From assembly GCA_009927165.1 (NCBI GenBank), contig RFNO01000038.1, positions 13,574-77,573 of the forward strand: a stretch of DNA of 64,000 nt, written 5' to 3'. This document shows, one piece after another, positions 7,386-62,458 of this stretch (position 1 is the first letter of the stretch; each line of letters begins with the position of its first letter). The translations under genes and the position numbers were made by a program. The notes under the pieces are model-generated. The model worked only from the letters and a program-made list of their open reading frames with translations, searched no databases and was not told the origin of the DNA. The DNA is from Pseudomonadota bacterium (GTDB lineage: Bacteria > Bdellovibrionota > FAC87 > UBA2466).

Positions 7386-7768
7386 TTTTTTCTTTGATTC
7401 ATTTGTTTGTCGCCTTTTCTGTGATGAGCTTTGCGGATCCTGGCCATTTGAATGAGCCAGTTGTTCCTTCTGAAAGTGATATGCGATTGCTCGTTAAGAG
7501 ACGGTTTGAAAAAAACGATTCGGCTCAACGAGGCGTTTTAATTTCCACTTCCTATCGTTGTCGAAGTGCTTGCCGATGTGAGGGAATGGCTCGAGCCAGG
7601 TCCTCAACGGAATATGTTGTTTGCGCCGATTCTCAAGAAGAGGCTACTGATATGGTTGTAGCAACCGGCGCATGTAAGTCTATTTGTCCTTTGGGCTCTG
7701 CTCCTCGTCCCGCTTCTCCCGCGTGCCAGCCTACGAATGTTCAGTGCAAAAAAGCTCATTGTCCTTAA
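7361..7768 (+). CDS. small secreted cysteine-rich protein, unknown function
   Basis: The GTG start is preceded by AAGGAG at 6-nt spacing. A signal-peptide-like N-terminus is present (MAWISVSLVFSLIHLFVAFSVMSFA). There are nine Cys in the last ~72 residues (hand count). Confidence 0.5.
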   Translation: MAWISVSLVFSLIHLFVAFSVMSFADPGHLNEPVVPSESDMRLLVKRRFEKNDSAQRGVLISTSYRCRSACRCEGMARARSSTEYVVCADSQEEATDMVVATGACKSICPLGSAPRPASPACQPTNVQCKKAHCP

Positions 7769-7821
7769 ATCCCCGTTATAAAATTGACGAAGGTTTAGGC
7801 ACCTGTCGAATCACTCAAAAA

Positions 7822-7839
7822 TGTCGAACTTTTTGACAG
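7822..7839. promoter_or_regulatory. 18-bp dyad element TGTCGAACTTTTTGACAG (TGTC-N9-GACA), candidate upstream activator site
   Basis: It matches 12958-12975 at 17 of 18 positions. It lies ~100 nt upstream of a sigma-54-type promoter. An extra half-site, CTGTCGAA, is at 7803-7810. Confidence 0.4.
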
Positions 7840-7931
7840 AGTAACCCCTTGAAGGAAGAAAGAAAATTAACCCTCCAATACCGAAATTGCGAAAGCGATC
7901 TAACTTTACCTTTTTCCCGCACAAAAAGCCT

Positions 7932-7947
7932 TGGCTCTCTCTTTGCA
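7932..7947 (+). promoter_or_regulatory. sigma-54-type -24/-12 promoter (TGGCTC-N5-TTGCA)
   Basis: The GG and GC dinucleotides are 11 nt apart, as in the TGGCAC-N5-TTGCA consensus. It is intergenic, on the same strand as the GTG start at 7997 and 50 nt upstream of it. Confidence 0.5.
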
Positions 7948-7996
7948 CCTCCAGGGGGTGATCGCACAACTGTTAAGCTTACGAAGGACCTGATAA

Positions 7997-9403
7997 GTGG
8001 CAGAAGTATTTACAAAAATCTTCTTAGTGATGACTCTCTGCTGGGTGTCGCTAGTTTCAGCAGAAAGTGAAGAGTCTCACGGTCCGTCCGCAGCGTTACC
8101 CGAACCAGAAAATAAAGTGGTAACCCAGGGAGAGCTTAAGCGACTGTTCGAGGAAGCCAAAAAAGAAGCTCCCACTCTCAATGCTACGGAAGCTGCTCTG
8201 AGAAAAGCGGCGAAAGCCATTGACGACAGAAAACAAGTAACGGTGATTGCTAACGAGTTTCCACACGCCAAAGAATTGGTAGAAGCTTTTGAAACCTTTG
8301 TGGAGCAACACAAAGGAAAAGTTAAAGCCGATGATATCCGCACCGAAATATTCGAAGAGGATTCTGAACCCGCACCAAAAAGCGCTAAACCTGAGGAGGC
8401 TCAGGAAAGCGCTCGGTTAAGAGAAAAACTTCGAGAATTGGAAAACGAAGTTTTAAATAAAGACCGGGCCGATCGGGGGCGTTCAGGTGGAGCAGGGTCA
8501 GGAGGTTCGGGCGGTGACGGAGACAGGGGTGATTCGAGCGGACAAAATTCCACGCCGTTTCCATCACCCAATAACGCCAGTCAAAATTCCAATAGTGGTA
8601 ATTCAACCGACCCTTTTAACCAATTAATGAATAAGCTTGGCAGCTCCAATCAAGGATTGGGAAATTTTTCCATCTCACCTAACAGTTCAAAAAAAGAAGA
8701 TGAAAAGAAATCTGACTTTTCTTTGGGGTCGTCAAAGTCCAATGCTAAAGACGATTTTTTCAGCTCCGAAAACAGTGCCAAGAAAGCAAGCCCAACACTA
8801 CCTAAGCCTTTGGGCAATGATTTACCGGAGCTTAGCACTGCAAAAAACAGCTTGCCTCCTCAAGGGGAACCTTTGACTTTGATGGACGCTGCTTCGCAAC
8901 CCGGGATTTCTAAAAACAACAACTCTGGTTTTAATGGGTCACAGGGCAATGGAATGAATAATAGCGGCATGAGTAACGCAGTGAACAATGGCATGGCAGG
9001 GCAGTCTCAGTTGGGAAGCTTAGGAGGCAATGGAGATTTTCCTTTCAATATTACAGGTGAGCCAGCTCCAGGAGAGAGTGAAGGCTATGAAGGCCCTCGG
9101 TTTAGAACGGTTCCTATTACGATGAATGGAAGCAGCGACGGACAAAGCGATGGAATGGGTTCAGTCGGATCAGGAGCTGCCAGCTCACCCGATGCATCTA
9201 AAAGATTACAAGCGAATGGGATAATTCCCCAAAATCTTTATACACTTTCAGCAGAAGAAGCGGCACTCAAAAATGTCCCTGGTGTCTTTAGAAGCTTGGC
9301 AGCTGGATTTCGTACATCACGCATTCAAAATCTTTGTAAGAGCGCAGACAAACAAGTCATTGGTGTCTGTTCCCGTCTTGAAAGTCAAAGACGAAACCAA
9401 TGA
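7997..9403 (+). CDS. secreted low-complexity (Ser/Asn/Gly-rich) protein, unknown function
   Basis: The N-terminus looks like a signal peptide (…IFLVMTLCWVSLVSAESEE). A charged, helical-looking region follows, then ~250 residues rich in S/N/G. Long open frame. The exact start is uncertain (GTG 7997 or a downstream ATG). Confidence 0.6.
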   Translation: MAEVFTKIFLVMTLCWVSLVSAESEESHGPSAALPEPENKVVTQGELKRLFEEAKKEAPTLNATEAALRKAAKAIDDRKQVTVIANEFPHAKELVEAFETFVEQHKGKVKADDIRTEIFEEDSEPAPKSAKPEEAQESARLREKLRELENEVLNKDRADRGRSGGAGSGGSGGDGDRGDSSGQNSTPFPSPNNASQNSNSGNSTDPFNQLMNKLGSSNQGLGNFSISPNSSKKEDEKKSDFSLGSSKSNAKDDFFSSENSAKKASPTLPKPLGNDLPELSTAKNSLPPQGEPLTLMDAASQPGISKNNNSGFNGSQGNGMNNSGMSNAVNNGMAGQSQLGSLGGNGDFPFNITGEPAPGESEGYEGPRFRTVPITMNGSSDGQSDGMGSVGSGAASSPDASKRLQANGIIPQNLYTLSAEEAALKNVPGVFRSLAAGFRTSRIQNLCKSADKQVIGVCSRLESQRRNQ

Positions 9404-9424
9404 AGTGAGAGTGAGGAGTAACCT

Positions 9425-10498
9425 ATGAAAAAGCACCTTCTTTTATTTGCCGTAATCGTATACCTCCCGACTACGTTACTGGCTGATGCAGGGTCTATCG
9501 CAAACAGTATTGTCGACCATTCGGAAAAAACCATGAATCAAGCCGTCACGAGCACCGGGAGAGAGTTTGCTTTTCAGGAAGCGGGTAATAATGCTGCTAC
9601 GGGCGCCGCTCTTGCGGGCGCTACGGGAGCTGCATTAACGGGCGCTGCGGTGGCTCAGTTTCTTTTAGGGAACTGGGGAGTAGGGGGAACTCTCATGGGC
9701 ATGGCGGGAATGGAATTTGCCCAGATGGCCGCTTCAAGTGGGGTTGCTAGAGACAATGGAAGTCGTTCCATGTGCATTCAAAATAACAATGCCATTAGTG
9801 ACGTAAATGGAGGATGTTATGGGTTTGATCCGATGACAGGAACTGCTTCGGGTCCAGTGGGTCAGTCAAATAACATGAGCAGCCAGATTCAGCCAGAGCT
9901 GCCGGCGAGTTTAGACAAGTATTTGGCTCAAGCCGGTGTAGATCCTAATCTATTCAGAGACGCGCTTCTTTCGGGACGACTGACTGATGGAGCTTCAGTG
10001 ATGGAAGCGCTAGGAAAAGATCCCAGTCTGGTGCGAGAATCTGATATGGCAAAAGCTCTCGAATTGGCTCAGGATGTAGTCAAAAGTACATCCGAAGAAA
10101 TGTCATTGGCAACACCAGCAGGAGATGTAGCTAAATCACAAAGCACGTATCAAAACAAAAATGAAGCTGAAAAAGGAAAAGACTTTGAAAATAGAGAAGC
10201 AGAGGAACGCAAAAGCGAACGCAAAAATGCAAAGAGTCTGGTCGCTGAAACAGGAACAGAAAATGAGCTAGCAGGCTCCGCTAATTTGTTGCGTAACTTG
10301 TTCGGAGCTCCCACAGAGAGTTTTACTTTGCGAGATCAAGGTCTGGTGTTTGAAATGTATTTGAAGGATCAGGGCCTTGTTAAAACGAGACAGGGAATGA
10401 ATATTTTTCAAATTGCAAAACAAAACTACCGTGGATTTTCCAAGTGGAGAACAAAATCACAGCCAAAGAAAAGTCCTCGCGTTGCTACTCTTCAGTAA
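9425..10498 (+). CDS. secreted/membrane-associated protein with Gly/Ala-rich hydrophobic repeat, unknown function
   Basis: Signal peptide MKKHLLLFAVIVYLPTTLLADA and an upstream GAGGAG RBS are present. Residues 57-106 are Gly/Ala-zipper-like (AATGAALAGATGAALTGAAVAQFLLGNWGVGGTLMGMAGM). The C-terminal half is charged. Confidence 0.6.
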   Translation: MKKHLLLFAVIVYLPTTLLADAGSIANSIVDHSEKTMNQAVTSTGREFAFQEAGNNAATGAALAGATGAALTGAAVAQFLLGNWGVGGTLMGMAGMEFAQMAASSGVARDNGSRSMCIQNNNAISDVNGGCYGFDPMTGTASGPVGQSNNMSSQIQPELPASLDKYLAQAGVDPNLFRDALLSGRLTDGASVMEALGKDPSLVRESDMAKALELAQDVVKSTSEEMSLATPAGDVAKSQSTYQNKNEAEKGKDFENREAEERKSERKNAKSLVAETGTENELAGSANLLRNLFGAPTESFTLRDQGLVFEMYLKDQGLVKTRQGMNIFQIAKQNYRGFSKWRTKSQPKKSPRVATLQ

Positions 10499-10511
10499 TG
10501 TCCTAGGCAAT

Positions 10512-10540
10512 TTACCAGAATGTGAAGAATTGACCATAAT
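10512..10540 (+). promoter_or_regulatory. possible sigma-70 promoter (TTACCA-N17-CATAAT) for the S8 protease gene
   Basis: This is a hexamer match by eye, ~77 nt upstream of ATG 10617. Weak evidence. Confidence 0.25.
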
Positions 10541-10616
10541 CTACTGTTATCAAATCTCAAGCGAGTTCTGCTCTGTGCCGAAAAGACTTCAAGTCTGTGT
10601 TTGGGTTTGAGGTGCT

Positions 10617-12185
10617 ATGGTGAGATTTTGGGTCCTTTGGGCCCTAGGGCTTTGCCTCTTTACGCAAAGCCTTACCGCGAAGGAAATTGCGGGAGAATGG
10701 ATTCTCACAGTAGATGTCCCAGGGAATTGGGAAAGCGTCGTTCAATCCTTACGAGGTCGGGCAAAGTTCATACGGGCATTGGGGTCTTCCCATCGCCATG
10801 CCCTATTCTTTTCGGAGCAGGCGTTTTCTAAAGAACGCAGTCAATGGCCAAGACATATTCTCTTTATTCAACCCAACCTGTCCTACAATACTCAGGAGAG
10901 TGTGGACCCCAATAACAACGGACCAAGAAACACGGTCAATAGTTGGGGGCTTCAACTGAATGAAGCTTGGAAAATCACTCAGGGTTCGAAAGAGGTTCGT
11001 GTAGCGATTTTAGATTCGGGAATAGATAGAAACCACGAAGACTTGCGCCAAAACATAGGGATATTAACAAAAGAAGTTCCCGGTAATGGAAAAGACGATG
11101 ATGGAAACGGTTGGATAGACGATGACTGGGGATGGAATTTCATTCATCAGAACAATAACCCTCAAGATGACAAAGGACATGGGTCGTTTTGTGCTGGCAT
11201 CATCGGAGCCGATTGGGACAACGACAAAGGGGTTCAAGGGATTAATCGGTTAGTCAGTCTGTTATCTGTGAAGATTTTAGATTCTTTTGGGCAAGGGAGC
11301 ACGGCTACGGCTATCGAGGGCATCGAGTATGCCATGAGCACGGGGGTGCACATCATCAATGCCAGTTGGGGGGGGAAACAGTTTGATCCGGCACTCTTTG
11401 AGACCATTAAACGAGCAACCCTGCAAGGCATCCTCTTTGTTGCAGCTGCGGGCAATAACTCGGAAGACAACGATGAAAATTCAAAGGCTATTTATCCAGC
11501 GAGTTTCAATATTCCAGGCCTCATTGCAGTAGCCGCTTATGACGATGGAGGAACACGGGCCCCCTGTTCAAACTATGGTCGACAACGAGTTCATTTGGGA
11601 GCTCCTGGAGTGGATCTTGTTGGTCTTCAATTAGGGGGGTACGGAGTTAAAAGTGGAACTTCGTTCGCGGCTCCGCAAGTCGCTGGAATAGCCGCTCTTT
11701 TGAAAGCTGCTTTCTTTGAAATGACCCCCTTCGAAATCCAAAGGATTTTGATGAGAACAAGTTCTCCGCTTCATTACAGTGAAAAGTATTACACAGTAAC
11801 TGGAGGCCTAGTAAATGCAGAGCACGCTGTTGCTCAGTTCGCTCCTCCTACGCCAACTTCTCCCAAGCGTTGGAAAAAGATTCCGTTCTTTGTGAGCTCA
11901 GCCCATCCTTACGCAGCCAGCTCCTCTGAAGAAATCACCATCAAGGAGCCAGGAGCGCAATTCCTGCGCATCAATTTTAAGAAGTTTGATGTAGAGAAAA
12001 CATTCGACAAAGTTGTGCTACGTGATAGTGAAGGCTACAAAGTGTATGAGTACTCGGGAAAATTAGAGAGTTTTACTTCTGTAGAGTCTCAGGGTGAGGA
12101 ATTAAGGTTGCAGTTGATAAGCGATTATAACCGTCAGTTTTACGGCTTCGATATTGATTCTATCGAAGCCGCCTATGAAAACTAA
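10617..12185 (+). CDS. secreted subtilisin-family (S8) serine protease with C-terminal CUB-like domain
   Basis: A signal peptide is present. The catalytic triad motifs are VAILDSGIDRNHEDL (Asp), HGSFCAGIIGA (His) and SGTSFAAPQVAGIAALL (Ser). There is a Ca-loop-like segment GNGKDDDGNGWIDDDWGWNF. The last ~100 residues show a CUB-like pattern. Confidence 0.9.
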   Translation: MVRFWVLWALGLCLFTQSLTAKEIAGEWILTVDVPGNWESVVQSLRGRAKFIRALGSSHRHALFFSEQAFSKERSQWPRHILFIQPNLSYNTQESVDPNNNGPRNTVNSWGLQLNEAWKITQGSKEVRVAILDSGIDRNHEDLRQNIGILTKEVPGNGKDDDGNGWIDDDWGWNFIHQNNNPQDDKGHGSFCAGIIGADWDNDKGVQGINRLVSLLSVKILDSFGQGSTATAIEGIEYAMSTGVHIINASWGGKQFDPALFETIKRATLQGILFVAAAGNNSEDNDENSKAIYPASFNIPGLIAVAAYDDGGTRAPCSNYGRQRVHLGAPGVDLVGLQLGGYGVKSGTSFAAPQVAGIAALLKAAFFEMTPFEIQRILMRTSSPLHYSEKYYTVTGGLVNAEHAVAQFAPPTPTSPKRWKKIPFFVSSAHPYAASSSEEITIKEPGAQFLRINFKKFDVEKTFDKVVLRDSEGYKVYEYSGKLESFTSVESQGEELRLQLISDYNRQFYGFDIDSIEAAYEN

Positions 12186-12191
12186 GCTAGC

Positions 12192-12845
12192 TTACCTTCG
12201 TACTTTTGAGCGTGCTGGAGCCCCTTCACTCATCGAGGGAAGTTGAATGGGCCGGTAAGCAATTTGTTGGGAAATAGACTTGGCGTGTGTTTCTAAAAAG
12301 GTGTTTGAATAATGCCAAGTGGTCATAACCAAAAGAACGGCAAAGCCACCCACAAACGCAGTTTCAATAAAACCCAATCCGAACTGCTCTCTCAGTGAAA
12401 AGAATCCCAACAAGGCTGCCCAAAAGAAAATAAATAAGCTGGCAGTTTCCATCCAGGGATAAAGGTGGGTTAAATGAGTGCTGGTATAAGCGGTTAAAAA
12501 TAAAGTGAACACGACAGACAATCTTCTAAAAAGAACTCTTTGGCTAGATGAGTGCCCCAAGAACGAGCCTACAAACCAGACTCCCAAAGAAATCAGCGAA
12601 GCTCCAATTAAAGTACAGGCTAGTTTCAGCGAAACGATTAACCAGGTGCCAATTTCCTTGCTGACACCTAGACGGAAAGAAAGGGCTTCTCCAAAAGCTT
12701 CCAGAACAACGTGATGGCGGCCGACATGAGCCTCTACTCCAGCTACCATCAAAAAAGCAAGTAGTAACCAGGTGTGGTGACTTGACCACTGAAGTTGATT
12801 TACAAACGCATTTGGCTTAACGAAAAAACGTACACCCTGTCGCAC
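12192..12845 (-). CDS. integral membrane protein (about 5 TM segments), unknown function
   Basis: Several ~20-residue hydrophobic stretches are present (WLLLAFLMVAGV, WLIVSLKLACTLIGASLISLGVWFV, VVFTLFLTAYT, LFIFFWAALLGFF, FVGGFAVLLVM). I recognised no family motif. Confidence 0.5.
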   Translation of the reverse strand: MRQGVRFFVKPNAFVNQLQWSSHHTWLLLAFLMVAGVEAHVGRHHVVLEAFGEALSFRLGVSKEIGTWLIVSLKLACTLIGASLISLGVWFVGSFLGHSSSQRVLFRRLSVVFTLFLTAYTSTHLTHLYPWMETASLFIFFWAALLGFFSLREQFGLGFIETAFVGGFAVLLVMTTWHYSNTFLETHAKSISQQIAYRPIQLPSMSEGAPARSKVRR

Positions 12846-12957
12846 ACGACCCCCTGAGAGATGGCCTTCTCCCCAACGAGGGATGAGTGCAAGAGTATGC
12901 CAACGGGCTACACATGATATTTATGCGTAAAATGGCGAAGAGTGCTCAAAAAAATAC

Positions 12958-12975
12958 TGTCGAACTTTTGGACAG
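12958..12975. promoter_or_regulatory. 18-bp dyad element TGTCGAACTTTTGGACAG (second copy), candidate upstream activator site
   Basis: It matches 7822-7839 at 17 of 18 positions. With flanks it reads ACTGTC-N9-GACAGT. It lies ~115 nt upstream of a sigma-54-type promoter at 13081. Confidence 0.4.
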
Positions 12976-13080
12976 TGGGCCCAAAGACCGCCTGTATACG
13001 CCGTGAACGGAGGTCTTTGAGTTCAACAAAAAAAATCGGACGACAGTCGAAAAATACCAATGGTTTCAAGGGGGGCAAAG

Positions 13081-13096
13081 TGGACTCCAAGTTGCA
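13081..13096 (+). promoter_or_regulatory. sigma-54-type -24/-12 promoter (TGGACT-N5-TTGCA)
   Basis: GG/GC spacing is correct (11 nt). It is intergenic and 31 nt upstream of ATG 13127, on the same strand. Confidence 0.45.
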
Positions 13097-13126
13097 TCAA
13101 GTTAGGGGTAAGAATTTTTTACAACC

Positions 13127-14089
13127 ATGGGAATGACTACTGTGAAACACATCACGAAACACATCGTTTTTCTCGGAGCTTTACTGCTCACTTCGTCGGG
13201 TTGTACCCAAAAAATGCCAAAAATTACGATGCCCGTTCAACAAGATACAGGGTTGCTTCCCGAAAGCGAATTTACCGAAATTAATCAAGACGTGAAACTA
13301 TTCCAAGCTGATGGTTATCTTTATGCGACTGGCCGTGGCGAAGGGTTCGGTATTTGGCAATTAAGTTCCAGAACTTTTTACAGCGGGTTGAATACTCTTC
13401 AAACCACAACCGGTGGTTTTAATTTTTTGGGCACTAATCCGCTCTCTGTCGGTGCCATCGTCAAAGCTGGCGGGATTTTAGTCATCAGTAGTGGAACAGG
13501 GCTTACGTTCATTGATGTTGCAACCAACGTCTCTATTCCCCAGGTCGTAGGGAGATTACCGCAAGTAAGTGGCCAACCTGTAGGTCCCGAATTTATTTGG
13601 CAAAGTGCGGTTTACGATTCCTCTACAAATCAAGTCTATGGATTTCGCGGAAACCAAATGTTTACTCTGAGTATGGCCTCTAGAACCATTGTCAGCACGG
13701 CTGCTATTCCTGATTTGGGCTGTGGTCGAGGAGCGACTCGTTTCAATAATCGAATTTTCGTAGCCGGTTGTTCTAGTTTATACGAACTGACAAATCCGAA
13801 TGGTGCAATGAGACAGATCACGGGCATTAACGCAGTTGATATCGTCTCGACTGCTCGGTTTCTTTATATCCACCACAAGCCATTGGTTAATAATTCTTAT
13901 GAGGGAATTTACGTGTATGATTCCAATTTGGCGTCGCGACTAACCATGCTGCGTAAAGTTGGTTCCTTGGAACCACGAAGTTTTGCTATTTCTCCCGATG
14001 ATCAGTTTATTTATTCCAATGATGTAGACGCCAATGGTCGAGGTGTTGAACTGAACATCTATCGCATTCCATGGACAAATAACTTTTAG
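13127..14089 (+). CDS. putative lipoprotein, beta-propeller-like repeats, unknown function
   Basis: The signal sequence ends in LLLTSSGC (lipobox-like). The rest is beta-rich with repeated G/hydrophobic strand patterns. Confidence 0.6.
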   Translation: MGMTTVKHITKHIVFLGALLLTSSGCTQKMPKITMPVQQDTGLLPESEFTEINQDVKLFQADGYLYATGRGEGFGIWQLSSRTFYSGLNTLQTTTGGFNFLGTNPLSVGAIVKAGGILVISSGTGLTFIDVATNVSIPQVVGRLPQVSGQPVGPEFIWQSAVYDSSTNQVYGFRGNQMFTLSMASRTIVSTAAIPDLGCGRGATRFNNRIFVAGCSSLYELTNPNGAMRQITGINAVDIVSTARFLYIHHKPLVNNSYEGIYVYDSNLASRLTMLRKVGSLEPRSFAISPDDQFIYSNDVDANGRGVELNIYRIPWTNNF

Positions 14090-14106
14090 CCCCGTACTCT
14101 TTAAGA

Positions 14107-14826
14107 ATGAGAAATGCATCTTGGTTTTTCCGAAAAGGACTTGTCTGCACCTTAACGCTCAGTTTGCTTTCTTTCCCGGCTTGGTGTGCTCCCGTAAAAT
14201 TTGAAATCCGAGATTTAACCCATAGAAATGTTTTGGCTTTTATCTCAGATGCGCTTCTTGAAAAAATCATCGCTCAATTCCAGCTCGTAAAGGGATACGT
14301 TTTATTAGATCCTGAGAATCTTTCCAGCGGGATACAAGGAGAAATGGAGGTCGATTTAAGAACCTTATTAACAGGAAGCCAAGTTCGTGATGTTGTGATT
14401 CAAGAGCAAGTACTAGACTCAAGGCAGTATCCATCCGCTTTTCTCAAAGTGAATAAATGGGCTCAAATTGTGAGCGGTAAATTAATCGAAGGCCAAAGTA
14501 ATGCCCATTCCGTAGAGGCCAATTTATCGTATCGAGGCAAAGATATTGCGCTGACTTTGCCCCTAAAAATTACCTATTTTAAAGAAGGGGAGACAACGCG
14601 AAGACGTTTACCAGGAAATTTATTGAAGGTGTCCAGTGAGTGGGATATCGAACTGTCTCAGTTGGGGATTACTCTTTCTGATTCTCTAAAACCGCTCATT
14701 GCAAAAAAGGTACAAGTTGCTTTTGATGGTATAGGGACTGATAAGCTACCCAATGAAAAAGTCACTCTCCCCGAAGGCCCCAAGCCTAAAGAAAGGGAGT
14801 CCTCCTCTTCGTCGCCGACCCAATAA
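14107..14826 (+). CDS. YceI-like (polyisoprenoid-binding-like) periplasmic protein
   Basis: A signal peptide is present, followed by the pattern F.I.D...V.F.S......I.G.F..V.G....D........G...VDL..L.TG...RD.......L....YP.A.F, which is typical of the YceI family. The C-terminal tail is Ser/Pro-rich. Confidence 0.5.
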   Translation: MRNASWFFRKGLVCTLTLSLLSFPAWCAPVKFEIRDLTHRNVLAFISDALLEKIIAQFQLVKGYVLLDPENLSSGIQGEMEVDLRTLLTGSQVRDVVIQEQVLDSRQYPSAFLKVNKWAQIVSGKLIEGQSNAHSVEANLSYRGKDIALTLPLKITYFKEGETTRRRLPGNLLKVSSEWDIELSQLGITLSDSLKPLIAKKVQVAFDGIGTDKLPNEKVTLPEGPKPKERESSSSSPTQ

Positions 14827-14884: not shown

Positions 14885-14912
14885 TTAAGTAAGTGTCCAA
14901 GCCTGAGACAGT

Positions 14913-14928
14913 TGGTCTTTACCTTGCA
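14913..14928 (+). promoter_or_regulatory. sigma-54-type -24/-12 promoter (TGGTCT-N5-TTGCA)
   Basis: GG/GC spacing is correct (11 nt). It is intergenic and 33 nt upstream of ATG 14961, on the same strand. Confidence 0.4.
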
Positions 14929-14960: not shown

Positions 14961-15530
14961 ATGCGGGATTCGATCATCACCTTAGGCATCTTCGGGATAC
15001 TCATCGGTAGCTTTATTGGTTACAGAAATCATCATTTGAATCGCGCCCAGAATCGGTCAACGCTCGTTAAACCTTCCTCACGGCAAACGGTTAGTAAAAA
15101 TCATCAAAATATTCGAGGAGAATCACAGCATGAAAGCTCAAATCATCGACGTTATGAACAAAAGCGGCCTCTTGAATCGCGCACGCGAACTTCAGGAGAA
15201 GTTGCAGAAACTGATCACGTCCCTCATCTCTACGAAGCCGAAGAGTCCGAACTCGGACTCTCAGTAGAAGAGGGTTCTGATGAATTAGCTGCATCCGAGC
15301 AGCTTTCTGAAGCTCCTGTGATTGCGGGGGTTCCGGTAGCTGCTTGGGTGCGCTCTCATAAAAATACACTAAAGGATGCGGTCGTTTCAGGTCCGGCGCC
15401 TAATGGTTTGAGATTATTCCTAGGATGTATGGAACTGAAAAAACAAGGCACTCGTTCTGCTGAAAAAGAAAACTGCGAAAAGTTGCTGGCGCGAGACAGT
15501 AAGCTAGCTAACGAAAGAGAACGTTACTAA
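14961..15530 (+). CDS. N-terminally membrane-anchored acidic/charged protein, unknown function
   Basis: It has a single N-terminal TM segment (IITLGIFGILIGSFIGY), then a polar, probably disordered region. No family motif recognised. Confidence 0.5.
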   Translation: MRDSIITLGIFGILIGSFIGYRNHHLNRAQNRSTLVKPSSRQTVSKNHQNIRGESQHESSNHRRYEQKRPLESRTRTSGEVAETDHVPHLYEAEESELGLSVEEGSDELAASEQLSEAPVIAGVPVAAWVRSHKNTLKDAVVSGPAPNGLRLFLGCMELKKQGTRSAEKENCEKLLARDSKLANERERY

Positions 15531-44597: not shown

Positions 44598-46547
44598 ATG
44601 CGCCGATTTCTTAACTATTTCCAGTCAAGCACACGTAGCTTAAAAACGCAGCTTGCCTTCTATTTCATTCCCGTAACGGTGCTGCCTGTTTTGGGTATTA
44701 GTTATTATGCAACCCACATTTTTGAAAAAAGCACCGAGGAAAGATTATTCCGTCAAGCAGAGTCTGAACAAAGTTTAGTGGTTTCGGAACTAGAAGCAGC
44801 AGAAAAAACCATTTCAGCGCAAATTCGTCGATACGCCAATTTGGATATTTTAATTTCTGCTGTCTCAAGTAAGAGTCCCCAAAAAATCACCCCCATTATT
44901 TCTGGCCTACGCTCCAACGGAAAACTGAGAGTTTATACAGCCGATGGTGATTTTCTTGCTGAAGGAGTGAGCGAACCCAACCTTCATTCGAGAGTCAACT
45001 ACATATCGAGAGAAGGACTAAAAAAAGTAAAAACTCAAGGAATCACAGTCGAGCGCTTTTTTGCTGACGATGGAGCGGGTCTTATTATTCTGGGAAGAGC
45101 GCTGTTGAAAGATGGTGATCGGCTTTATGGGATCTTGGAACAAGAAACTCTCTTCGGTCATGCCCAACTTGCGGAGATTCGAAGTAGACGACAGCTAGAT
45201 GTTATTTTTGTGAAGCGAGACTTTTCTACAGCGACATCAAGTTTGTCTATCGGATCCCAGCGCCTCGTTGATTTTTCCAAGGGGTTATTACAGTCAAAAA
45301 TAGTGGCATCTCATGCCTTCAACCCGATATGGCTGGGAGATGTTAGGTATGCCAGCTATCTGTACGACTTACCTGACATGACTGGGAAAACCAAGAGCTG
45401 GGCTTATCTAGGTATCCTGTTGCCTCTGACTCAAAGCGATCAAACTTCTCGTCAGTTAAGGATTAATATTATCTATATAACTGCTTTCTTGGCATTGGGT
45501 TTTGGATACCTCATCTTTGTTTTCTCAAATCGAATCGTGAAACCGATTGAAGTGCTTGTCGTCGCCATGAAACGAGTGAAAACTGGAAACGTTGAGGAAA
45601 TCCCACCTAACGATTCCAGCTATGAAATCGACTATCTGATCAGTGCGTTCAACGAAATGATACGGAATGTTAGTGCTGCTAAGAGAGCGCTGGAACTGAA
45701 AGTAGATGAGCTTAGAAAAGCTAACGCTGAAATAAAGAGCACCCAGACTACCTTGGTACAATCAGCAAAGATGATCTCCCTGGGACAGATAGTTGCAGGC
45801 GTTGCCCATGAACTGAATAATCCTGTCGCATTTATTTATAGTAATATGCATCATTTGTCGGGATATATAGAAAAAATAAAAGAAATGATTTCCGCCTACC
45901 AGGCTTTGAAAATGGAGATACCAGTAGATAAACGTAAAGAAGTTGAGAATCTTGAGCAAAAACTTGAGATTTCATTTCTCTTAAATGACATGGGTGAGCT
46001 TACCCAGAGTTGTTTAGATGGAGCGAATCGTACCAAGGAAATCGTTCTTGGATTGCGAACATTTTCTCGTATGGATGAGTCAAGCTTTCGACCCTCTGAT
46101 CTCCATGAAGGTCTCAAGAGCACTCTGCGTCTTTTGAGCGCCGAATTAAAAAATCGAATTACCGTTCATCAGGAATTCGGTGAAATCCCGAAAGTCGAGT
46201 GTGCACTTTCACAGATAAATCAAGTGTTCATGAATCTGATCTCAAATGCGGCGCAAGCGATAAATGGGAAAGGCAGTATATGGATTCGAACATACTCTGA
46301 AGAGAAATCCGTTATTATTGAGATTGAAGACTCAGGGATGGGAATGAGTCCCGAAGTAGTGAGCCAAGTTTTTGTTCCGTTTTTTACGACGAAGAGAGTG
46401 GGCGAGGGAACTGGGCTAGGTCTCTCAATAGCTTATGGTCTGATTCAAAAGCATAATGGGCGTATAGAAGTTGAAAGTGAACCGGGAAAAGGTACTTTGT
46501 TTAGAATAATTCTGCCTATCACACAAAGAGTTTCCGAAGCAGGGTAA
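44598..46547 (+). CDS. sensor histidine kinase (2 TM, periplasmic sensor, HAMP, HisKA, HATPase_c)
   Basis: H-box GVAHELNNP, N-box FMNLISNAAQA, G1 EIEDSGMGM and G2 GTGLGLSIAYG are present. There are two hydrophobic segments at residues ~20-40 and ~290-310. Confidence 0.9.
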   Translation: MRRFLNYFQSSTRSLKTQLAFYFIPVTVLPVLGISYYATHIFEKSTEERLFRQAESEQSLVVSELEAAEKTISAQIRRYANLDILISAVSSKSPQKITPIISGLRSNGKLRVYTADGDFLAEGVSEPNLHSRVNYISREGLKKVKTQGITVERFFADDGAGLIILGRALLKDGDRLYGILEQETLFGHAQLAEIRSRRQLDVIFVKRDFSTATSSLSIGSQRLVDFSKGLLQSKIVASHAFNPIWLGDVRYASYLYDLPDMTGKTKSWAYLGILLPLTQSDQTSRQLRINIIYITAFLALGFGYLIFVFSNRIVKPIEVLVVAMKRVKTGNVEEIPPNDSSYEIDYLISAFNEMIRNVSAAKRALELKVDELRKANAEIKSTQTTLVQSAKMISLGQIVAGVAHELNNPVAFIYSNMHHLSGYIEKIKEMISAYQALKMEIPVDKRKEVENLEQKLEISFLLNDMGELTQSCLDGANRTKEIVLGLRTFSRMDESSFRPSDLHEGLKSTLRLLSAELKNRITVHQEFGEIPKVECALSQINQVFMNLISNAAQAINGKGSIWIRTYSEEKSVIIEIEDSGMGMSPEVVSQVFVPFFTTKRVGEGTGLGLSIAYGLIQKHNGRIEVESEPGKGTLFRIILPITQRVSEAG

Positions 46548-56584: not shown

Positions 56585-56684
56585 CCTCCTAAAAACGATT
56601 CTCATCTCAGTCAATGAAATGACGCTTGGAAAGCCTCTCTGACGTTTGATTCACTGGGTCTAGCGTATTCTTAAGGAATATCTC

Positions 56685-56700
56685 TGGCACTCCCTTTGCA
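56685..56700 (+). promoter_or_regulatory. consensus sigma-54 promoter TGGCAC-N5-TTGCA upstream of fliL
   Basis: Exact match to the -24/-12 consensus. It is intergenic and 43 nt upstream of ATG 56743, which has the RBS GAGGGGGAG. Confidence 0.65.
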
Positions 56701-61385: not shown

Positions 61386-62458
61386 ATGGCGCTGTTCGAA
61401 GGATCAGACGAGGAAAGGACTGAAACCGCGAGCGCGTTTCGTCGCGAGGAATTCCGGAAAAAGGGTTCTGTTGCTGTTTCCCGGGAGCTACTTTCCGTAG
61501 CTTTGATGTTTGCGGTTGTTGCCACACTTTACTTTTCCGTAAATGGGATTTTCCGGGAGTTTGGTGGTCTTATTGAAAAGTTTTTTAAGTTTGGGAATGG
61601 TGGTGACTTTAGCAAGCAGGAGTTCCTAAGAATTAAAAATGACATGGGGATTTCATTCTTTTGGATGGTCACTCCTGTTTTTGTAGTAGCGATGATAGCT
61701 GGAATTCTTACTAGCGCTGCACAAGTAGGATTTTATATTACTTGGGAGCCACTGACCCCCAACTGGGACAGAATAAATCCAGTTTCTGGGTTGCAGAGAT
61801 TGTTTCTTCAAAAGGACTCGTAGAAGCGTTAAAAGCCGTTCTGAAAATAGTAGTCGTTGGTTGGGTTGCTTGGAAATTTTGCCTTTCCCATTCCGAAGTA
61901 GTCTCTGGACTTCTTGGAAAGACTCCAGGCGAAGAGGCCATTTTAGTATTACAGATTCTCGGGAAACTGTTTCTGACCCTTGTGTCCGCTTGTGTTGTGA
62001 TAGCTGCAGCTGATTATGGATTTCAGAAATACTTTCTCGAAAAGCAGATGAGAATGACTCGTCGGGAAATGAAAGAGGAGTTTAAACTGCGAGAGGGGGA
62101 TCCCCTTATCAAATCGAGGATCCGAGGAATTCAGAAGCGAATTGCTGGTCGCAGAATGATGGAAGATGTCCCGAAAGCGGCAGTTATTGTTACCAACCCG
62201 ACACATTTGGCGGTTGCGCTCCAATATGAAGAGGGAATGGCCGCACCGAAAGTGATTGCAAAGGGTGCTGGATTTATCGCAGACAAAATAAGGGAACTCG
62301 CAAAAACTAATGGCATTCCGATTGTGGAGAACAAGCCGCTGGCGAGAACACTTTTTAAGAATATAAAAATTGGGCACTCCATCCCTAAAGATCTCTACAA
62401 AGCGGTCGCAGAGGTTTTAGCTTATGTTTTCAAGCTGAAGGGTCTGAGAAGAGCCTGA
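61386..62458 (+). pseudogene. flhB: flagellar export switch protein FlhB, interrupted by a 1-nt frameshift near 61803-61806 (two ORFs: 61386..61823 and 61742..62458)
   Basis: ORF 1 carries the FlhB N-terminus (EERTETASAFRREEFRKKGSVAVSRE ... NPVSGLQRLF). The conserved continuation SSKGLVEALKAVLKIVVVG is in the -1 frame, and that frame runs on to the NPTH autocleavage motif (VTNPTHLAVAL). Adding 1 nt to the combined length gives 358 codons, a normal FlhB size. Confidence 0.85.

Follow-up and report, generated by a model that had tools for sequence, protein, structure and literature searches.

Organization of the locus

The window analysed here is a stretch of 64 kb of DNA from an uncultured member of the Bdellovibrionota, a relative of Bdellovibrio. 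It carries two copies of an 18-bp dyad, each lying upstream of a promoter element of the -24/-12 type, as used by the sigma factor RpoN (sigma-54), and of a unit of genes for exported proteins. The first unit encodes a 468-amino-acid (aa) secreted low-complexity protein (7997-9403), a 357-aa secreted protein (9425-10498) and a subtilisin-like S8 protease (10617-12185). The second encodes a 320-aa lipoprotein (13127-14089) and a YceI-like periplasmic protein (14107-14826). Comparison with orthologous loci shows the dyad and the -24/-12 elements to be real, non-random features which, judging from their conservation, are under purifying selection. We give a probability of about 0.6 to the interpretation that the dyad is the enhancer, or upstream activator sequence (UAS), of a bacterial enhancer-binding protein (EBP) driving the sigma-54 promoters of the two units.

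An earlier interpretation of the same DNA, made from its letters alone (the sequence-only reading), had proposed that two unlinked operons of exported proteins share an enhancer-type site and a -24/-12 promoter. This interpretation is partly supported: its kind is for the most part correct, and its details are unproven. The word "unlinked" has to be given up: the units lie 5 kb apart in a single neighbourhood, whose synteny extends to at least five species, and they are neighbours because only a minus-strand gene for a 217-aa membrane protein separates them. The coordinates of the features are collected in Table 1.

Table 1. Elements and genes of the dyad-bearing region, in window coordinates
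Feature	Position	Strand	Sequence and remarks
Extra half-site	7803-7810	+	CTGTCGAA; 19 nt 5' of dyad copy 1; forms CTGTCAAA and CTGTCTAA in L007 and L010
Dyad copy 1	7822-7839	.	TGTCGAACTTTTTGACAG; kept in L007 and L010, degenerate in L110
-24/-12 promoter, 468-aa/357-aa/S8-protease unit	7932-7947	+	TGGCTCTCTCTTTGCA; predicted transcription start near 7958
Target unit 1	7997-12185	+	468-aa secreted low-complexity protein, 357-aa secreted protein, S8 protease
217-aa multi-pass membrane-protein gene	12192-12845	-	Divergent; shares the intergenic region with dyad copy 2
Dyad copy 2	12958-12975	.	TGTCGAACTTTTGGACAG; candidate activator (EBP) binding site
TGTATAC(A)-type palindrome	12993-12999		GTATAC at 12994-12999; between dyad copy 2 and promoter
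-24/-12 promoter, lipoprotein-YceI unit	13081-13096	+	TGGACTCCAAGTTGCA; predicted transcription start near 13107
Target unit 2	13127-14826	+	320-aa lipoprotein, YceI-like periplasmic protein
TGTC-N9-GACAG dyad with a different interior	14894-14911		TGTCCAAGCCTGAGACAG; abuts the third -24/-12 element
Third conserved -24/-12 element	14913-14928	+	TGGTCTTTACCTTGCA; 5' of a 189-aa gene (14961-15530)

The dyad and its promoters

The two dyad copies differ by a single mismatch at position 13, and their coordinates are those that had been reported from the letters. When both strands of the window were searched with up to three mismatches, the two copies were the only matches (0.07 expected), and two matches were reached in none of 100 dinucleotide-preserving shuffles of the window. 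Together with the C that precedes it, copy 2 forms a 19-bp imperfect palindrome, CTGTCGAAC-T-TTTGGACAG, with the half-site TGTCRAA. In the palindrome CTGTCGAAC-T-TTTTGACAG, seven of the nine arm positions are symmetric, and this is the dyad symmetry expected of a site for a helix-turn-helix dimer. The core can be written as the 17-bp TGTC-N9-GACA, and it also fits TGT-N11-ACA. The core pattern has four occurrences in the window, where 0.64 would be expected; three of the four belong to the dyad-associated promoters and the element at 14913.

Two other elements described around the dyad fared less well. The CTCAAAAA tract is indeed present ahead of both copies, but orthologs keep it only in part in the region of the 468-aa gene and have lost it in the lipoprotein region. 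A related half-site, CAGTCGAA, had been placed at 13045-13052, one position off from its true place at 13044-13051, and no ortholog keeps it. Two further explanations of the dyad itself were considered and rejected. It is not a terminator, because its stem is only 4 bp, and it is not a promoter of the extracytoplasmic-function (ECF) type (GAAC plus TTGACA), because in no locus does a conserved -10 element follow it.

Both promoter elements, TGGACTCCAAGTTGCA and TGGCTCTCTCTTTGCA, have the canonical GG-N10-GC spacing of RpoN promoters, and the start codons follow at about 31 nt (ATG, 13127) and about 50 nt (GTG, 7997). The element described as TGGACT-N5-TTGCA, some 31 nt before the lipoprotein start, stands at its assigned coordinates with this spacing, and its -24 region, TGGACT, is below consensus strength. 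Each dyad copy lies 103-116 nt 5' of a correctly spaced -24/-12 element. Across the window, the pattern TGG-N8-TTGCW was found 12 times, against 5.65 expected, a count reached in one of 100 shuffles; four of the 12 matches (7932, 13081, 14913 and 56685) sit 30-50 nt 5' of a start on the same strand. A simple sigma-70 scan of the intergenic regions 7769-7996 and 12846-13126 returned no sigma-70-like -35/-10 pair.

Footprints in orthologous loci

The lipoprotein occurs on metagenomic contigs and in two NCBI metagenome-assembled genomes (MAGs). Syntenic loci of relatives were recovered through its few homologs and through DNA pattern scans. The lipoprotein region was compared in four and then in ten lineages, and the region of the 468-aa gene in three lineages plus locus L110. 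The closest labelled relative is the MAG Bdellovibrio sp. ZAP7 (Bdellovibrionota), with 70% identity in the membrane protein and 30% in the lipoprotein. Among the ten lineages, identity of the lipoprotein is 26-46%.

The 18-mer, with T or G at position 13, is present in all ten lipoprotein loci, and it is inverted in two of them (L042 and L090). In the alignment of four lineages it is invariant save for the window's own G at position 13, and the DNA between dyad and promoter diverges, with a 22-nt indel. At the promoter, eight of the ten orthologs keep TGG and TTGCA unchanged, and the 5-8 nt between them vary. The remaining two, which are those with the inverted dyad, have GTGCACGCTCTTTGCA, where TG replaces GG at -25/-24. 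The same pattern of conservation recurs in three lineages at the 468-aa gene, where the promoter of L007 and L010 reads TGGATCCTCCCTTGCA. Altogether, GG-N10-GC is retained in four separate promoters of the window and in their orthologs, and conservation is confined to the blocks that bear the doublets.

Over 13 ortholog promoters, the distance from the dyad centre to the GG ranges from 101 to 200 nt, and distance and orientation are both variable, as expected for an enhancer. The geometry agrees with that of enhancer sites, which lie about 70-200 nt from the -24/-12 element and tolerate changes in distance and orientation. The distances tend to fall near full turns of the helix, but this is only suggestive: with a repeat of 10.5-10.7 bp per turn the Rayleigh p is 0.03-0.06, a result that depends on the repeat assumed.

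A second conserved element stands between dyad copy 2 and the lipoprotein promoter. From the GTATAC of this palindrome to the TGG of the -24 region, the distance is fixed at 86-87 nt in six lineages and is 96-98 nt in two. The palindrome, of the TGTATACA type, is a candidate site for a second protein, and such a factor would be promoter-specific, because the palindrome is absent from the region upstream of the first unit.

Distribution across genomes and viruses

A scan of one genome per species, covering 185,579 species, returned 43 exact matches to the 18-mer, 23 of them in MAGs of the Bdellovibrionota. By a rough estimate, chance alone would give about 35 matches in the whole collection, and this accounts for the matches scattered over other phyla, most of which are intragenic. 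Within the Bdellovibrionota, nearly all of the dyads are intergenic and adjoin genes for exported or envelope proteins, including outer-membrane beta-barrels, a trypsin-like protease, a YkuD-type L,D-transpeptidase next to an MscS-like channel, and lipoproteins. A metagenome scan added more orthologs of the lipoprotein locus and further dyad sites.

The dyad could in principle be a dispersed repeat, resembling repetitive extragenic palindromic (REP) sequences or miniature inverted-repeat transposable elements (MITEs), or it could have recurred by chance and play no part in regulation. The roughly 20 exact matches in unrelated phyla, about the number expected by chance and mostly intragenic, would be in keeping with this. 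However, there are one or two copies per genome, the similarity ends at 18-19 bp with unrelated flanks, the orthologous position is kept at 26-46% protein identity, and the site is intergenic in nearly all of the Bdellovibrionota cases. The sequence-only reading had itself named a repeat family with no positional link to promoters as the finding that would overturn it; the genome scans found no such family, and this explanation is effectively refuted.

The link to promoters was counted with a sigma-54-like element defined as having obligatory GG and GC, at least 9 of 12 consensus positions, and a place within 300 nt of the dyad. In the Bdellovibrionota loci, 12 such elements point away from the dyad and none toward it, where 1.83 are expected from the same loci (a 6.6-fold enrichment; Poisson 5e-7). 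With each orthologous group counted once, the element is present in 7 of 15 families (P ~7e-5). At dyad loci outside the phylum, two elements point away and four toward. The dyad and sigma-54-like promoters thus co-occur beyond chance. The metagenome-wide count of away and toward elements is less clean, with chance matches in high-GC DNA and a promoter-packed phage region.

Six IMG/VR viral contigs hold the 18-mer. Viral locus L119 (dyad at 7499, oriented locus) has three tandem dyad-like sites at offsets 0, +50 and +69, and the centre of the first is about 78 nt from the GG of a strong TGGCACGCCGCATGCA, which points away toward a 119-aa gene. By its layout, this phage appears to use the same enhancer and sigma-54 logic. 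Loci L116 and L118, which have the same sequence as L107, are phage-like and present, in the roughly 130 nt before the dyad, a tandem array of five or six strong promoters of the sigma-54 type, then TGGCACGGCGCTGGCA at +78 after it, with a common CCTTGATTTTATTGG block between; L057, L066, L069 and L102 have the same layout. A Rubrivivax MAG (L021/L091; dyad at 244) has an exact copy of the 18-mer 125 nt 5' of CGGCACGACCCTTGCT, before a PEP-CTERM gene (PF07589).

The same survey bears on another explanation, in which a conventional dimeric regulator that is not an EBP, of the LysR type or another helix-turn-helix family, binds the dyad and modulates promoters of either class. The EBP of the -24/-12 promoters would then bind elsewhere, for instance at TGTATACA, or act without a fixed site. 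Sites of several kinds fit such a regulator: about half of the dyads across the phylum are without a recognisable sigma-54 promoter, and some lie 2-30 nt from a divergent start or about 60-75 nt 5' of an extended -10-like element. Moreover, TGTATACA keeps its 86-87 nt from the lipoprotein promoter and the dyad distance drifts, and the sole match in the literature for TGT-N11-ACA is a LysR-family regulator. Set against these points, the dyad is the only element common to both window promoters, outward-pointing sigma-54-like promoters are significantly enriched, the distance and orientation of the dyad vary in a way that sigma-70 activators of class I or II do not accept, and no gene for a LysR or other regulator adjoins. 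EBPs of the FleQ kind are known to work at sigma-70 promoters as well (PMC3424551), and therefore sites without a -24/-12 element do not exclude an EBP. We regard a regulator of the non-EBP kind as unlikely.

Sigma-54 and the activator

The use of sigma-54 in the source genome is indirectly supported by a further promoter of the window. At 56685-56700, the consensus-perfect TGGCACTCCCTTTGCA stands 43 nt 5' of fliL-fliM-fliN-fliO-fliP, and a FleQ-box-like dyad, GTCAATGAAATGAC (56610-56623), lies 75 nt 5' of this promoter, which suggests that a separate flagellar EBP acts at fliL. In the same phylum, B. bacteriovorus HD100 has an RpoN-like sigma factor, bd0843 (PMC3464611).

The genes for the sigma factor and for the activator were searched for near the dyad. 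A six-frame scan of the window found no GAFTGA, EBP Walker A or RpoN-box motif, and a Pfam scan that took in 57 of the 59 window open reading frames of at least 150 aa found no Sigma54_activat domain, so the earlier statement that no EBP gene lies in the window holds in both scans. The same motifs were absent from all of the loci scanned, with the sole exception of a GSYTGA match in a 200-aa protein, which is coincidental. Beyond the 3' end of the window, locus L111 continues with flhA-flhF-flhG-fliA-xerD and shows no EBP gene.

It could be argued that the -24/-12 likenesses are nonfunctional, that sigma-70 or another sigma factor reads the genes, and that the TGG...TTGCA blocks serve, for example, as leader or operator. 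RpoN was not found for the source genome in the scans of the window and loci, the TGGACT of the lipoprotein promoter is weaker than consensus, and the conservation of a wrongly spaced element at 12888-12903 (described below) implies that TGGCA- or TTGCA-like blocks may be kept for other reasons. We nevertheless consider this very unlikely, given the exact spacing in four promoters and their orthologs with conservation limited to the doublet blocks, the lack of -35/-10 candidates in the sigma-70 scan of the two intergenic regions, the perfect consensus before fliL, and the presence of RpoN in the phylum.

The enhancer interpretation

Under the enhancer interpretation, the dyad would be bound by a dimeric helix-turn-helix activator. 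The likeliest candidate is an EBP of the NtrC family whose gene lies elsewhere in the genome. The activator would dock about 100-140 nt 5' of the -24/-12 promoters, contact the closed sigma-54 holoenzyme at -24/-12 through DNA looping, and open the promoter by hydrolysing ATP, and the two units would in this way be switched on together. The dyad sites would be part of a regulon shared throughout the Bdellovibrionota and made up of exported and envelope proteins. We infer that the binder is an EBP, that RpoN reads these promoters, and that both units answer the same signal. The proposal that one enhancer-type site and a -24/-12 promoter precede both units is strongly backed by the footprints, by the concentration of the dyad in the Bdellovibrionota, by the enrichment of outward sigma-54-like elements and by the enhancer-like variation in distance and orientation.

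Several observations weigh against the enhancer interpretation. About half of the Bdellovibrionota dyad sites have no GG-N10-GC within 300 nt. At L016, L019 and L055, the dyad lies between an MscS-like gene, whose start is 25-29 nt away, and a YkuD-type gene; no -24/-12 element was found at this site, and an extended -10-like TGnTATAAC, which looks more like the promoter here, stands just before the ATG, therefore the binding protein may act at non-sigma-54 promoters too. The first operon of L110 keeps its promoter (TGGATCAAGGCTTGCA) with the dyad decayed to TGTCTAAGTTTCAGTCAA. Many EBPs use two or three sites, and here there is only one full dyad per promoter, joined by the conserved half-site 19 nt upstream in region 1 (the first unit) and standing alone in region 2 (the lipoprotein unit). 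At the lipoprotein promoter, the EBP could in truth bind the TGTATACA palindrome, whose distance from that promoter is constant. Neither an EBP gene nor rpoN turned up in the window, in the approximately 7 kb past its 3' end, or in about 100 dyad-bearing loci, and the metatranscriptome runs examined share no sampled words with the locus.

The interpretation can be extended to a phylum-wide regulon of secreted and envelope proteins under one sigma-54 activator with an unusually invariant 18-bp enhancer. Such a regulon might control entry into some stage of the predatory life cycle, and its enhancer would be borrowed by phages of these bacteria and be evolutionarily related to the PrsR box described below. 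We put this forward tentatively and think it rather doubtful as a whole. If it were true, the regulon would contain proteases, outer-membrane barrels, lipoproteins and cell-wall enzymes.

Relation to known systems and significance

The UAS of NifA (TGT-N10-ACA) and the sites of NtrC lie at about -100 to -150, act by looping, and tolerate changes of distance and orientation. The window dyad is likewise a TGT...ACA dyad, but its spacing is N11 and not N10, and its targets are unrelated to nitrogen metabolism. It also fits the T-N11-A of a LysR box, but the divergent gene encodes the 217-aa membrane protein and there is no LysR domain nearby.

Among described sites, those of GlrR (QseF/YfhA) are the closest likeness. 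In the Enterobacteriaceae, three copies of TGTC-N10-GACA stand 5' of the sigma-54 promoters of glmY and glmZ (PMC3045617). GlrR is an NtrC-family regulator whose TGTC...GACA repeats lie more than 100 bp 5' of the -24/-12 element; the sites and the promoter are co-conserved, and there is a link to the envelope (PMC3045617). The GlrR arrangement has N10, three copies and IHF sites between, whereas the window has N9, one full site and a conserved interior, GAACTTTTT. The site, being N9 and single, thus falls outside the GlrR sites, and its targets are coding operons for exported proteins in a different phylum.

In architecture, the closest described likeness is the PrsK/PrsR PEP-CTERM region of Proteobacteria, which consists of a 17-nt motif 1, a spacer and a sigma-54 motif 2 (Haft et al. 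2006, PMC1569441). It came to light purely through comparative genomics, after which phylogenetic profiling singled out PrsR as its EBP (PMC1569441). In both cases long intergenic regions precede genes for exported proteins, and Rubrivivax L021 combines the 18-mer, a sigma-54 promoter and a PEP-CTERM gene, a combination that links the dyad to regulation of the PrsR/PrsK type. Motif 1 is reported to end in TTTACA, with a spacer of 63 +/- 11 nt (32-92) (PMC1569441), whereas the window dyad ends in TTGACA with spacers of 92 and 105 nt. Pfam found no PEP-CTERM domain in the target proteins of the window. In motif end, spacers and targets the window thus differs from the PrsR region, and the feature is present only in Rubrivivax L021.

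FleQ offers a third comparison, as its box has the consensus GTCaNTAAAtTGAC at flagellar sigma-54 promoters (PMC6120874). The FleQ-like site before fliL in the window follows the same logic of UAS plus promoter as the dyad, but it differs from the dyad in sequence, in presumed regulator and in regulon.

The proposed EBP/sigma-54 switch is of an ordinary, known kind, and this instance in the Bdellovibrionota was not found described: a literature search found no paper on the motif or on a Bdellovibrio sigma-54 regulon. Sigma-54 regulation in this phylum is essentially uncharted, and the literature found mentions just an rpoN-like gene. The mechanism is standard, so the value of the finding lies in annotation and regulon discovery and not in new transcription biology. 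The combined signature of enhancer and promoter is a handle for enumerating the regulon in any Bdellovibrio-like genome, for tracing the activator through phylogenetic profiling, the route that led to PrsR, and for learning whether the exported proteins, including proteases, form one programme in a predatory bacterium.

Other features of the window

The third -24/-12 element and the dyad that abuts it (TGGTCTTTACCTTGCA and TGTCCAAGCCTGAGACAG) are invariant in six lineages, with the dyad homolog of L050 about 60 nt farther upstream. It is uncertain whether TGTCCAAGCCTGAGACAG is related to the main dyad. Directly 5' of the -24 region, there are conserved blocks at both main promoters, AATGRTTTCAAG (13059-13070) before the lipoprotein and TTTTTCCCGCACAAAAA (7913-7930) at the other; the two are unlike each other and are possibly sites for DNA-bending proteins.

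The 217-aa membrane protein is 40-84% identical across all ten orthologous loci, where its gene is always divergent from the lipoprotein gene, and it may be controlled from the dyad too. Upstream of this gene, on the minus strand, lies TTGGCATACTCTTGCA (TTGGCAT-N4-TTGCA, 12888-12903), which is conserved in 10 of 10 orthologous loci. It was rejected as a divergent sigma-54 promoter because its GG..GC spacing, at 9 (8 in L065), falls short of 10; another factor may bind there, or the promoter may be of a non-canonical type.

An orphan sensor histidine kinase with HAMP, HisKA and HATPase domains is encoded at 44598-46547 without an adjacent response regulator. In the window, flhB appears as two overlapping open reading frames (61386-61823 and 61742-62458), and L111, from the same organism, has an intact 357-aa gene, which points to a frameshift or an assembly error. 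Finally, the AlphaFold2 model of the 320-aa lipoprotein (pTM 0.73) has beta-propellers as its Foldseek matches, for example YncE (3vh0), and these matches indicate a predicted beta-propeller fold.

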